Below, one piece after another: positions 13,588-63,845 of a stretch of DNA of 64,000 bases. The stretch's first letter is position 1; every line of letters begins with the position of its first letter. The stretch is from Escherichia coli (GTDB taxonomy: Bacteria > Pseudomonadota > Gammaproteobacteria > Enterobacterales > Enterobacteriaceae): NCBI RefSeq assembly GCF_003334765.1, contig NZ_QOWT01000008.1; one strand, written 5' to 3'. The position numbers were made by a program, and so were the translations under genes. A model generated the notes under the pieces. The model searched no databases, was not told the origin of the DNA, and worked only from the letters and a program-made list of their open reading frames with translations.

Positions 13588-15867
13588 ATGGATGACCAGT
13601 TAAAACAAAGTGCACTTGATTTCCATGAATTTCCAGTTCCAGGGAAAATCCAGGTTTCTCCAACCAAGCCTCTGGCAACACAGCGCGATCTGGCGCTGGC
13701 CTACTCACCAGGCGTTGCCGCACCTTGTCTTGAAATCGAAAAAGACCCGTTAAAAGCCTACAAATATACCGCCCGCGGTAACCTGGTGGCGGTGATCTCT
13801 AACGGTACGGCGGTGCTGGGGTTAGGCAACATTGGCGCGCTGGCAGGCAAACCGGTGATGGAAGGCAAGGGCGTTCTGTTTAAGAAATTCGCCGGGATTG
13901 ATGTATTTGACATTGAAGTTGACGAACTCGACCCGGACAAATTTATTGAAGTTGTCGCCGCGCTCGAACCAACCTTCGGCGGCATCAACCTCGAAGACAT
14001 TAAAGCGCCAGAATGTTTCTATATTGAACAGAAACTGCGCGAGCGGATGAATATTCCGGTATTCCACGACGATCAGCACGGCACGGCAATTATCAGCACT
14101 GCCGCCATCCTCAACGGCTTGCGCGTGGTGGAGAAAAACATCTCCGACGTGCGGATGGTGGTTTCCGGCGCGGGTGCCGCAGCAATCGCCTGTATGAACC
14201 TGCTGGTAGCGCTGGGTCTGCAAAAACATAACATCGTGGTTTGCGATTCAAAAGGCGTTATCTATCAGGGCCGTGAGCCAAACATGGCGGAAACCAAAGC
14301 CGCATATGCGGTGGTGGATGACGGCAAACGTACCCTCGATGATGTGATTGAAGGCGCGGATATTTTCCTGGGCTGTTCCGGCCCGAAAGTGCTGACCCAG
14401 GAAATGGTGAAGAAAATGGCTCGTGCGCCAATGATCCTGGCGCTGGCGAACCCGGAACCGGAAATTCTGCCGCCGCTGGCGAAAGAAGTGCGTCCGGATG
14501 CCATCATTTGCACCGGTCGTTCTGACTATCCGAACCAGGTGAACAACGTCCTGTGCTTCCCGTTCATCTTCCGTGGCGCGCTGGACGTTGGCGCAACCGC
14601 CATCAACGAAGAGATGAAACTGGCGGCGGTACGTGCGATTGCAGAACTCGCCCATGCGGAACAGAGCGAAGTGGTGGCTTCAGCGTATGGCGATCAGGAT
14701 CTGAGCTTTGGTCCGGAATACATCATTCCAAAACCGTTTGATCCGCGCTTGATCGTTAAGATCGCTCCTGCGGTCGCTAAAGCCGCGATGGAGTCGGGCG
14801 TGGCGACTCGTCCGATTGCTGATTTCGACGTCTACATCGACAAGCTGACTGAGTTCGTTTACAAAACCAACCTGTTTATGAAGCCGATTTTCTCCCAGGC
14901 TCGCAAAGCGCCGAAGCGCGTTGTTCTGCCGGAAGGGGAAGAGGCGCGCGTTCTGCATGCCACTCAGGAACTGGTAACGCTGGGACTGGCGAAACCGATC
15001 CTTATCGGTCGTCCGAACGTGATCGAAATGCGCATTCAGAAACTGGGCTTGCAGATCAAAGCGGGCGTTGATTTTGAGATCGTCAATAACGAATCCGATC
15101 CGCGCTTTAAAGAGTACTGGACCGAATACTTCCAGATCATGAAGCGTCGCGGCGTCACTCAGGAACAGGCGCAGCGGGCGCTGATCAGTAACCCGACAGT
15201 GATCGGCGCGATCATGGTTCAGCGTGGGGAAGCCGATGCAATGATTTGCGGTACGGTGGGTGATTATCATGAACATTTTAGCGTGGTGAAAAATGTCTTT
15301 GGTTATCGCGATGGCGTTCACACCGCAGGTGCCATGAACGCGCTGCTGCTGCCGAGTGGTAACACCTTTATTGCCGATACATATGTTAATGATGAACCGG
15401 ATGCAGAAGAGCTGGCGGAGATCACCTTGATGGCGGCAGAAACTGTCCGTCGTTTTGGTATTGAGCCGCGCGTTGCTTTGTTGTCGCACTCCAACTTTGG
15501 TTCTTCTGACTGCCCGTCGTCGAGCAAAATGCGTCAGGCGCTGGAACTGGTCAGGGAACGTGCACCAGAACTGATGATTGATGGTGAAATGCACGGCGAT
15601 GCAGCGCTGGTGGAAGCGATTCGCAACGACCGTATGCCGGACAGCTCTTTGAAAGGTTCCGCCAATATTCTGGTGATGCCGAACATGGAAGCTGCCCGCA
15701 TTAGTTACAACTTACTGCGTGTTTCCAGCTCGGAAGGTGTGACTGTCGGCCCGGTGCTGATGGGTGTGGCGAAACCGGTTCACGTGTTAACGCCGATCGC
15801 ATCGGTGCGTCGTATCGTCAACATGGTGGCGCTGGCCGTGGTAGAAGCGCAAACCCAACCGCTGTAA
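13588..15867 (+). CDS. maeB: NADP-dependent malic enzyme (malic enzyme domain plus C-terminal PTA-like domain)
   Basis: 759 aa recognised as MaeB. Confidence 0.96.
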
Positions 15868-15883: not shown

Positions 15884-15909
15884 GCTTACCCTGAATATTC
15901 AGGGTAAGC
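15884..15909. terminator. perfect 26-bp palindrome GCTTACCCTGAATATTCAGGGTAAGC; possible maeB terminator or protein-binding site
   Basis: Read directly 17 nt after the maeB stop; downstream U-tract is weak, so function is uncertain. Confidence 0.35.
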
Positions 15910-28773: not shown

Positions 28774-29433
28774 ATGCCAGCTTTAGATTTGATTCGACCG
28801 TCTGTCACCGCTATGCGGGTGATTGCCTCCGTTAACGCCGATTTTGCGCGTGAACTGAAATTGCCGCCGCATATTCGTAGCCTCGGTCTGATTTCTGCCG
28901 ACTCCGATGACGTCACCTACATTGCCGCTGATGAAGCGACCAAGCAGGCGATGGTGGAAGTGGTGTATGGCCGCTCGCTATATGCGGGCGCTGCACACGG
29001 CCCGTCACCGACTGCCGGTGAAGTGCTGATTATGCTTGGTGGGCCAAACCCGGCGGAAGTGCGTGCAGGTCTGGATGCGATGATTGCGCATATTGAAAAT
29101 GGCGCAGCTTTCCAGTGGGCTAATGACGCGCAAGATACGGCATTCCTGGCACATGTAGTTTCGCGTACCGGTTCTTATCTCTCATCAACCGCCGGGATCA
29201 CGCTTGGCGATCCGATGGCGTATCTGGTGGCACCGCCGCTGGAAGCGACCTATGGCATTGATGCAGCCCTGAAGTCTGCCGACGTACAGCTGGCGACCTA
29301 TGTCCCGCCACCGTCTGAAACCAACTACTCGGCAGCATTTTTAACCGGTAGCCAGGCAGCGTGTAAAGCAGCCTGTAACGCCTTTACCGATGCAGTGCTG
29401 GAAATCGCGCGTAATCCAATCCAGCGTGCGTAA
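28774..29433 (+). CDS. eutL: EutL, tandem-BMC-domain shell protein
   Basis: 219 aa. Confidence 0.95.
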
Positions 29434-29445
29434 CGGAGGTTGCCG

Positions 29446-29946
29446 ATGATCAATGCACTGGGATTGCTGGAAGTGGACGGCATGGTCGCCGCGATAGATG
29501 CAGCGGATGCCATGCTCAAAGCAGCTAACGTTCGTCTGCTCAGTCACGAAGTGCTTGACCCTGGTCGCTTAACGCTGGTGGTGGAAGGCGATCTGGCGGC
29601 GTGTCGTGCGGCGCTGGACGCAGGTTGTGCTGCCGCGATGCGTACCGGGCGTGTCATCAGCCGCAAGGAGATCGGTCGGCCAGACGATGACACCCAGTGG
29701 CTGGTTACTGGCTTTAACCGCCAGCCGAAGCAACCCGTAAGGGAACCCGACGCGCCAGTTATCGTCGCGGAATCTGCTGACGAGTTGTTGGCGCTGTTAA
29801 CATCAGTACGTCAGGGAATGACGGCAGGAGAAGTGGCTGCCCACTTTGGCTGGCCGCTGGAAAAAGCCAGAAATGCGCTCGAACAGCTCTTTTCTGCCGG
29901 GACGTTACGTAAACGCAGTAGTCGTTATCGTCTCAAGCCCCATTAA
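29446..29946 (+). CDS. eutK: EutK, BMC shell protein with C-terminal helix-turn-helix-like extension
   Basis: ATG 29446 after GGAGG gives 166 aa starting MINALGLLEV; ORF-track start 29440 is TTG. Confidence 0.9.
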   Translation: MINALGLLEVDGMVAAIDAADAMLKAANVRLLSHEVLDPGRLTLVVEGDLAACRAALDAGCAAAMRTGRVISRKEIGRPDDDTQWLVTGFNRQPKQPVREPDAPVIVAESADELLALLTSVRQGMTAGEVAAHFGWPLEKARNALEQLFSAGTLRKRSSRYRLKPH

Positions 29947-29991
29947 CCTGTCGGAGGTGCCGGGTGTCCTACAACACCCGGCATTAACATC

Positions 29992-31044
29992 ATGAAAAAG
30001 ACCCGTACAGCCAATTTGCACCATCTTTATCATGAACCCTTACCCGAAAACCTGAAGCTCACGCCGAAGGTCGAAGTGGATAATGTTCATCAACGACAGA
30101 CAACGGATGTCTATGAACATGCTTTAACGATTACCGCCTGGCAGCAGATTTACGATCAGCTGCATCCGGGCAAGTTTCATGGTGAATTTACGGAAATTCT
30201 ACTCGATGATATTCAGGTTTTTCGTGAATACACCGGTCTGGCGCTGCGTCAGTCGTGCCTGGTCTGGCCGAACTCGTTCTGGTTTGGCATTCCGGCGACG
30301 CGCGGTGAGCAGGGATTTATCGGTTCGCAATGTCTGGGAAGCGCGGAAATCGCCACCCGCCCTGGTGGCACTGAATTTGAACTGAGCACGCCGGATGATT
30401 ACACGATCCTGGGCGTGGTGCTTTCTGAAGATGTCATCACCCGGCAGGCTAACTTTTTGCATAACCCGGATCGGGTATTACATATGTTGCGTAACCAGTC
30501 GGCGCTGGAAGTGAAAGAGCAGCATAAAGCCGCGCTGTGGGGCTTTGTCCAACAGGCGCTGGCGACGTTTTGCGAGAATCCGGAAAATCTCCATCAGCCT
30601 GCAGTGCGAAAAGTGCTGGGGGATAATTTGCTAATGGCGATGGGGGCCATGCTGGAAGAAGCGCAACCAATGGTGACGGCGGAAAGCATCAGTCATCAGA
30701 GTTACCGTCGATTGCTTTCCCGCGCCCGTGAATATGTGCTGGAAAACATGTCCGAACCGGTGACGGTGCTGGATTTGTGTAATCAACTGCATGTCAGCCG
30801 CCGCACGCTACAAAACGCGTTTCACGCTATTTTAGGCATTGGCCCGAACGCGTGGCTGAAACGCATTCGCCTGAACGCCGTACGCCGCGAACTGATAAGT
30901 CCGTGGTCGCAAAGTATGACGGTAAAAGACGCCGCCATGCAGTGGGGATTCTGGCATCTGGGGCAATTTGCCACGGATTACCAGCAGCTGTTTTCCGAGA
31001 AGCCGTCACTGACGCTGCATCAGCGGATGCGGGAGTGGGGGTGA
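29992..31044 (+). CDS. eutR: EutR, AraC-family activator of the eut operon
   Basis: 350 aa; C-terminal AraC-type HTH. Confidence 0.93.
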
Positions 31045-63646: not shown

Positions 63647-63707
63647 ATCGCAGATAGCAAAAAAGCGCCTTTAGGGCGCTTTTTTACATTGGTGGGTCGT
63701 GCAGGAT
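63647..63707. repeat. 61-bp direct repeat, copy 1: terminator hairpin plus 3'-terminal 18 nt of tRNA-Lys (copy 2 at 63803-63863 runs into intact lysV)
   Basis: ATCGCAGATAG(C/T)AAAAAAGCGCCTTTAGGGCGCTTTTTTACATTGGTGGGTCGTGCAGGAT occurs twice, 156-bp period, one mismatch. Confidence 0.8.
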
Positions 63708-63845
63708 GACTCGCTTCGCTCGCCCTTCGGGCCGTCGCCGCGAGCGGCTCCGTTGTTTCGCTGCGCTCAACTCAAACCTGCTGCAGGTTCGAATCTTTGA
63801 GTATCGCAGATAGTAAAAAAGCGCCTTTAGGGCGCTTTTTTACAT

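Follow-up and report, generated by a model that had tools for sequence, protein, structure and literature searches.

A conserved hairpin upstream of the eutR start codon in Escherichia coli may bridge a split ribosome binding site

INTRODUCTION

Positive feedback in the eut operon is set by its activator, EutR, whose yield per transcript has so far been without an explanation. EutR needs to be balanced against EutBC, a competitor for the same cofactor, according to those parts of a review that recount work from the Roth laboratory (PMC5821096), and in EHEC it controls virulence genes (PMC8565329). What, then, sets the output of eutR at the level of translation?

The window, that is the whole 64,000-nt stretch of DNA analysed here, contains the E. 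coli eut operon, with eutB, eutC, eutL, eutK and eutR in this order, followed on the opposite strand by hemF and amiA. A strong hairpin, here called H1, lies directly before the eutR start codon. Many E. coli chromosomes match the 501 bases around it at 100% identity, and in the K-12 record the 45-bp gap between eutK and eutR that holds it carries no annotated feature. In the literature searched we found no description of H1 or of the second helix (H2) treated below; Kofoid 1999 and Roof and Roth 1992 might mention the hairpin. We analysed H1 by folding and by comparison with related loci, and weighed the roles that it could have in the expression of eutR.

RESULTS

The eutK–eutR junction

The features of the junction, all on the plus strand, are as follows.

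29446–29946, + strand: eutK coding sequence (open reading frame list; RefSeq annotation of identical E. coli sequence)
29944–29946, + strand: eutK stop codon TAA, invariant among the aligned relatives
29947–29952, + strand: linker CCUGUC, 6 nt from the eutK stop to the Shine–Dalgarno (SD) sequence, nearly invariant
29953–29959, + strand: distal SD sequence GGAGGUG, perfectly complementary over 7 nt to the anti-SD at the 3′ end of the 16S rRNA
29959–29982, + strand: hairpin H1, GCCGGGTGT-CCTACA-ACACCCGGC (sequence, folding, covariation)
29959–29967 and 29974–29982, + strand: arms of H1, with the loop at 29968–29973
29983–29991, + strand: A/U-rich 9-nt spacer AUUAACAUC, without an SD-like element
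29990–30001, + strand: 5′ arm of H2, UCAUGA-A-AAAGA, containing the start codon (predicted fold)
29992–31044, + strand: eutR coding sequence, 350 aa, AraC-family activator of the eut operon (open reading frame list; RefSeq annotation)
29992–29994, + strand: eutR start codon ATG, with the N-terminus MKK... kept among relatives
30024–30035, + strand: 3′ arm of H2, UCUUU-A-UCAUGA, eutR codons 11–15 (predicted fold)

An alternative eutR start further upstream was rejected, as there is no in-frame ATG, GTG or TTG from the eutK stop to 29992. For the linker, alignment A1 has C5, G7 and T8 at least 90% conserved and C9 invariant. The whole initiation region is identical in K-12, Nissle and O157, so that variation within the E. 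coli population is uninformative here. In one O157:H7 strain (F3113), the RefSeq eutR is 1125 nt long, against 1053 nt in K-12 and Nissle; the start is the same, so it is the 3′ end that differs in that lineage.

A conserved RNA hairpin

H1 contains nine Watson–Crick pairs, or ten if the optional U29958–A29983 pair is counted. The window sequence bears out the initial annotation on its sequence, its position, its 9-bp stem and its end 9 nt before the eutR ATG. Folded alone, H1 has a free energy of −17.0 kcal/mol (z = −5.2 relative to shuffled sequences), and in the predicted ensemble of the −48 to +48 context its pairing probability is ∼1. By chance, ∼1.35 hits per 64 kb are expected for perfect hairpins with 9 bp or more (Markov resamplings, nested versions counted). 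The window holds 19 such hits at nine loci, mostly terminators, which exceeds this expectation. A single hairpin of this kind is thus weak evidence, and the comparative data carry the argument. A search of Rfam returned matches at chance level only (E above 3; 12–16 bits against thresholds of 37–69).

Other palindromes were observed in the window. A perfect 11-bp palindrome, GCTTACCCTGA-ATAT-TCAGGGTAAGC, lies at 15884–15909 in A/T-rich intergenic DNA with no adjacent T run, beginning 17 nt past the stop of a 759-aa open reading frame (13588–15867). Two copies of a terminator-like palindrome, AAAAAAGCGCCTTTAGGGCGCTTTTTT, are found at 63659–63685 and 63813–63843, 154 nt apart. Each copy is followed by ACATTGGTGGGTCGTGCAGGAT, resembling minus-strand tRNA 3′ ends, and the first copy diverges after this; the duplicated AAAAAAGCGCCTTTAGGGCGCTTTTTT/ACATTGGTGGGTCGTGCAGGAT unit may have arisen when a tRNA gene and its terminator were partially duplicated.

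Related junctions were collected by a scan of one genome per species, which gave 63 eutR loci, and by a DNA-pattern scan of metagenomes, which gave 41 more. A common layout was found in Escherichia, Citrobacter, Klebsiella, Salmonella, Pseudocitrobacter and a Pluralibacter MAG: the eutK TAA, 6 nt, GGAGG, 0–1 nt, the hairpin, 9–10 nt and the ATG, with 30 distinct hairpin sequences. The GGAGG core is invariant across all the hairpin-bearing relatives, and the two flanking distances (SD to stem, 0–1 nt; stem to ATG, 9–10 nt) hold in 33 of 33 distinct sequences. The hairpins of the relatives are 24–27 nt long, with 9–12 bp and free energies of −15.6 to −22.7 kcal/mol. Loops vary freely (CCUACA, AUU, GAAA, GAGA and others), as does stem length.

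Covariation was assessed with pairs counted from the stem base, because the MAFFT alignment gapped one arm only, and also on a covariance-model alignment. Stem pairs 2–5 (CCGG/CCGG) show no variation in the 30 distinct hairpins, and pairs 6, 7, 9, 10 and 11 covary with pairing kept; pair 7, for example, occurs as UA, AU, GU and CG, and pair 9 as UA, UG and CG. Over pairs 1–9 of the 30 distinct hairpins, 97.4% of combinations are canonical, compared with 89.6% when partners are shuffled, and none of 2000 shuffles reached the observed value. The covariance-model alignment gave 88% paired against 82.5%, and a covariation of 0.236 against 0.165 (0 of 500), whilst controls with the register slid on this alignment gave 35–64% paired. 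Among the metagenomic variants there are changes from wobble to Watson–Crick pairs and an A.C mismatch repaired to A–U; only one variant weakens the stem.

The stem contains ∼30 G.U cells compared with ∼5 A.C cells. Since G.U far outnumber A.C, selection is on the sense RNA. A DNA operator or cruciform, or a structure in an antisense RNA, was rejected on this count and also because the arm sequences change while remaining paired. Judged by these comparisons, H1 is a real, conserved structure that is selected as RNA.

Two explanations can be weighed on these data. The first is weak intrinsic termination or pausing at H1, with less read-through from the main promoter P1 into eutR; a G+C-rich hairpin of this stability between two genes would suit such a role, as lower transcription of the activator is reasonable there. 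However, neither strand has a U tract, the stem being followed by AUUAACAUC in E. coli and by UUAAAAGAUC in Citrobacter. A terminator scan of positions 29000–30400 found none, and the fixed distances to the SD and the ATG would be unexplained. We consider termination very improbable. The second is that H1 is the tolerated relic of a small palindromic, REP-like insertion and has no function, eutR being translated without an SD. The stem base, GCCGG...CCGGC, recalls what we take to be REP heads, which we count in favour of a relic, and insertion into an ancestral GGAGG-N9-10-ATG site would yield exactly the present layout. Against this, the compensatory and wobble-to-Watson–Crick changes and the near absence of disrupted stems indicate ongoing selection for pairing. 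The element is single-copy in each E. coli genome, and an origin by insertion is compatible with a bridging function today. A functionless relic thus seems scarcely credible.

Three other candidates at the junction were tried and rejected. A leader mini-ORF that could serve in coupling (GTG at 29964 to TAA at 29987, seven codons, 6 nt after GGAGG) is absent in 9 of 26 relatives, and its frame and length differ in the remaining ones. For a frameshift or read-through signal in eutK, an A-rich heptamer occurs in some genera only, 14 nt from the stem, and not in E. coli. A long-range pairing of CUGUCGG (29948–29954) with eutR codons 4–7 appeared in one fold and was not recovered in wider contexts or in other taxa.

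A Shine–Dalgarno sequence lies upstream of H1

The initial annotation had also reported no obvious SD for eutR. This is correct for the 9-nt spacer between the stem and the ATG, where the best duplex found in a scan of 29983–29991 was +2.0 kcal/mol, but it does not hold for the junction as a whole. The sequence GGAGGUG, whose duplex with the 16S 3′ end is worth −12.7 kcal/mol, starts 6 nt past the eutK stop and abuts the 5′ arm of H1. Only G29959 of this sequence belongs to the core stem, and the AUG follows 9 nt downstream of H1. In six sequences of the hairpin clade that were scanned for a proximal SD, none was found up to 22 nt from the ATG (best values −1.7 to −3.2 kcal/mol).

The linear distance from SD to ATG is 34 nt in E. 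coli and 34–38 nt in the relatives. With H1 folded, the computed spacing becomes 1 + 9 nt in E. coli and 9–11 nt across the 33 distinct sequences. In several predicted ensembles the last two G residues of GGAGG are weakly paired with the U residues after the stem or with other partners.

This geometry bears on the possibility that H1 is mainly an element of mRNA stability or processing. It could be a barrier to 3′–5′ exonucleases, protecting the eutS–eutK segment, or a 5′ stabilizer of a processed eutR mRNA, and either would set differing levels of the structural proteins and the activator. H1 resembles stabilizer hairpins in being intercistronic, G+C-rich and covarying with a free loop sequence, and the eutR mRNA is subject to RNase E decay (PMC8565329). 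On the other hand, a stabilizer needs neither a fixed distance to a start codon nor an SD on its 5′ side, and genes that follow such hairpins normally keep a proximal SD, which eutR lacks. It is thus unlikely that stability or processing is the main role of H1, though such a role may coexist with a bridging one.

Relatives without the hairpin

We compared 23 outgroup loci, from Yokenella, Buttiauxella, Hafnia, Morganella, Dickeya, Pectobacterium, Brenneria, Lonsdalea, Samsonia and a second Pluralibacter type. In each of the 23, an SD-like element (−3.9 to −14.5 kcal/mol) is found no more than 22 nt from the ATG, and no hairpin of the H1 type was found in the 22 loci other than Yokenella. Where the outgroups have a GGAGG, it ends 8–10 nt before the ATG, which is the folded spacing of the hairpin clade. 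The simplest history, as read from these sequences, would be that a palindrome inserted just after the SD of a GGAGG-N9-10-ATG site and has been kept folded since.

Two natural variants depart further from the common layout. In Intestinirhabdus alba (L028, 1415–1496) the hairpin is enlarged to ∼80 nt (−50 kcal/mol) and the linear SD–AUG distance is 86 nt; GGAGG, the stem base and the 9–10-nt spacer are all kept. Its inner palindrome holds GCCTGATG / GCCTGATGGC, presumably REP-head-like, as if a REP had inserted in the loop. In Yokenella regensburgei (L030, 1455–1503), a decayed hairpin and the distal GGAGG are accompanied by a new GGAGGGG 3–4 nt from the ATG, and by its sequence this site resembles a step in evolution from one type of site, split or contiguous, to the other.

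A Pseudocitrobacter-like metagenome contig (L127, ERZ772937...NODE-11320) carries a 9-nt tandem duplication, GGAGGTGCC-GGAGGTGCC, which places two SD copies before the hairpin; the stem-adjacent copy retains the usual geometry. An alternative structure at the eutR start was observed at positions ∼1475–1565 in Pectobacterium and Samsonia (L052, L062, L063), Brenneria (L041, L049) and Lonsdalea (L053–L056). In these distant homologues a conventional GGAGG is predicted to pair with CCUCC in codons ∼17–19 (Thr-Pro-Pro), sequestering the SD, and in Pectobacterium this predicted pairing extends to a long helix of UUUUUCUGGGAGG with CCUCCAGAAAAA.

The role first suggested for H1 was that of a repressor in the ribosome landing zone, which would hinder an SD-less start, keep EutR low and so damp the positive feedback. 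The stability of H1 (−17 kcal/mol) and its position from −33 to −10, within the usual 30S footprint, are in keeping with this, as is a spacer with no SD. In E. coli and Citrobacter the stem can be extended by G.U pairs onto the last G residues of GGAGG, and the eutR homologues of other families have predicted structures that sequester the SD or the AUG, so that restraint of EutR translation is maybe a general theme. However, H1 holds neither the SD core nor the AUG, and the extension onto the SD is not conserved in Klebsiella or Salmonella. Repression by H1 also leaves unexplained the invariant GGAGG on its 5′ side, the fixed flanking distances, the tolerated 80-nt version with the same base and the proximal SD of every hairpin-less relative. 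We judge it unlikely that H1 is a repressor.

A second predicted helix over the AUG

H2 is predicted beside H1 in the MFE folds of 26 of 26 relatives, and RNAalifold agrees. Folded alone it has a free energy of −8.9 kcal/mol, with a predicted pairing probability of ∼1. Its 3′ arm coincides with the longest synonymously invariant run in eutR, codons 11–15 (CAT CTT TAT CAT GAA). Only 8.8% of the degenerate codons of eutR are invariant, and codons 2–3, the partners in H2, are also among these. Another 16 metagenomic variants leave the 3′ arm unchanged. Nothing in H2 varies, so that no covariation is seen, and its pairing is suggested by complementarity and by constraint at the nucleotide level only. 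The second-lowest synonymous variation in eutR, behind codons 11–15, is found at codons 48–52 (AWQQI; window positions 30133–30147).

The start codon would thus be inside a helix in the case of H2, in its 5′ arm, and is outside in the case of H1, as is the SD core. The earlier proposal that structure keeps EutR low is therefore improbable for H1, whose stem includes neither element, and is plausible for H2. On the predicted folds, H2 rather than H1 is probably the better candidate for a brake on initiation that keeps EutR low.

DISCUSSION

The fixed position of H1 between an invariant SD and the AUG, the spacer without an SD and the contiguous SD of the hairpin-less relatives point to a bridging role. 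We lean towards the reading that H1 bridges a split (noncontiguous) ribosome binding site like those known from phage T4 genes 25 and 38. On the comparative evidence, the role of H1 is most likely to enable translation and not to block it.

The mechanism would be as follows. GGAGGUG would be the sole SD for eutR and, at 34 nt from the AUG, would be too far away in unfolded RNA; folding of H1 would cut the spacing to ∼10 nt. The 30S subunit would then pair with the distal SD, with the AUG in the P site and H1 protruding from the mRNA track. We infer both that the distal SD is used and that its use depends on a folded H1. The G+C-rich stem base, GCCGG/CCGGC, would hold the geometry, and it is conceivable that it stacks on the SD–anti-SD helix. 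A ribosome halted at the eutK TAA would reach only to ∼29956–29959, so that H1 would stay folded, and re-use of this ribosome would be possible. Initiation is probably restrained by H2, which is weaker and covers the AUG. P1 read-through and P2 transcripts alike would then give a low and fixed output of EutR.

Several points count against a split site. The folded spacing, 9–11 nt plus the width of a helix, is near the long end of the workable range, and the A/U-rich spacer could support SD-independent initiation, in which case GGAGG would owe its conservation to something else. The largest gap in the argument concerns P2, as an mRNA that starts downstream of 29953 would lack the SD. No sigma-70-like match to at least 8 of 12 positions was found for P2 within 460 nt upstream in 11 taxa. 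A Salmonella P2-eutR′-′lacZ translational fusion (−454 to +104) is expressed, and its expression is lowered by overproduction of CsrA (PMC10433801), which binds GGA and in most cases exerts its effect at SD sequences. The effect of CsrA fits, indirectly, with a functional GGA-containing SD; the fused fragment holds other GGA motifs too.

A bridged site could also be a regulated switch, in which a factor clamps or melts H1 and so turns EutR synthesis on or off. The recognition target would be the invariant stem base with its flank, CCUGUCGGAGG-GCCGG...CCGGC, and the candidate factors are the C-terminal domain of EutK, CsrA, temperature and ribosomes terminating on eutK. The invariance of stem pairs 2–5 and of the linker, beyond what base pairing needs, would favour such a target. 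We take the C-terminal domain of EutK to be nucleic-acid-binding, and eutK ends 12 nt upstream of H1; a switch through EutK would tie activator output to production of the microcompartment shell. However, Buttiauxella has eutK with no hairpin. We regard regulated switching as a long shot.

If eutR is translated from a hairpin-bridged ribosome binding site, this gives a mutable handle on EutR output. Disruption of the stem is then predicted to lower EutR, the opposite sign to that expected for H1 in the initial annotation. How such sites evolve is shown by the natural variants, in which the hairpin has grown to 80 nt, has decayed beside a new SD, or follows a duplicated SD.

Among known systems, structures that inhibit initiation (the de Smit and van Duin model; RNA thermometers) resemble H2, which places the AUG in a helix, and are unlike H1, which leaves both the SD core and the AUG outside its stem and is not known to depend on temperature or a ligand. 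The E. coli thrS gene has a split ribosome binding site (Sacerdot et al. 1998, in the accounts given by PMC3936740 and PMC7297116). As far as these accounts go, eutR would be like thrS in that the ribosome accommodates a long folded hairpin inside its binding site instead of unfolding it. The thrS hairpin, in the same accounts, parts the SD–AUG module from an upstream single-stranded segment and the thrS SD is properly spaced, whereas the eutR hairpin sits between the SD and the AUG.

The closest likeness is to phage T4, where such sites are termed noncontiguous or split (PMC7297116); the original work (Gold 1988; Nivinskas et al. 1999; Malys and Nivinskas 2009) is taken here from the summaries in PMC3014915 and PMC7297116. 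A hairpin shortens the SD–AUG spacing from 22 to 5 nt in gene 38 and from 27 to 11 nt in gene 25. Mutations that destabilize the stems reduce translation, and distant relatives are without the arrangement (PMC3014915). The eutR junction shares with these genes an SD that is too distant in the linear sequence (34 nt, against 27 and 22 nt), a hairpin that fills the gap, and a workable folded spacing (∼10 nt as predicted, against 11 and 5 nt). It is likewise intercistronic, with close relatives keeping the hairpin and distant ones having a contiguous site. It differs in belonging to a chromosomal regulatory gene and not to a phage gene, in having a longer and stronger hairpin (9–12 bp, −16 to −23 kcal/mol; ∼80 nt in one genus) and in having a second helix over the AUG. 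We found no other chromosomal example of the T4-type bridged arrangement, which is documented mainly in phage T4. On the comparison of sequences, eutR is most likely a new, cellular member of the kind of split ribosome binding site known from T4.
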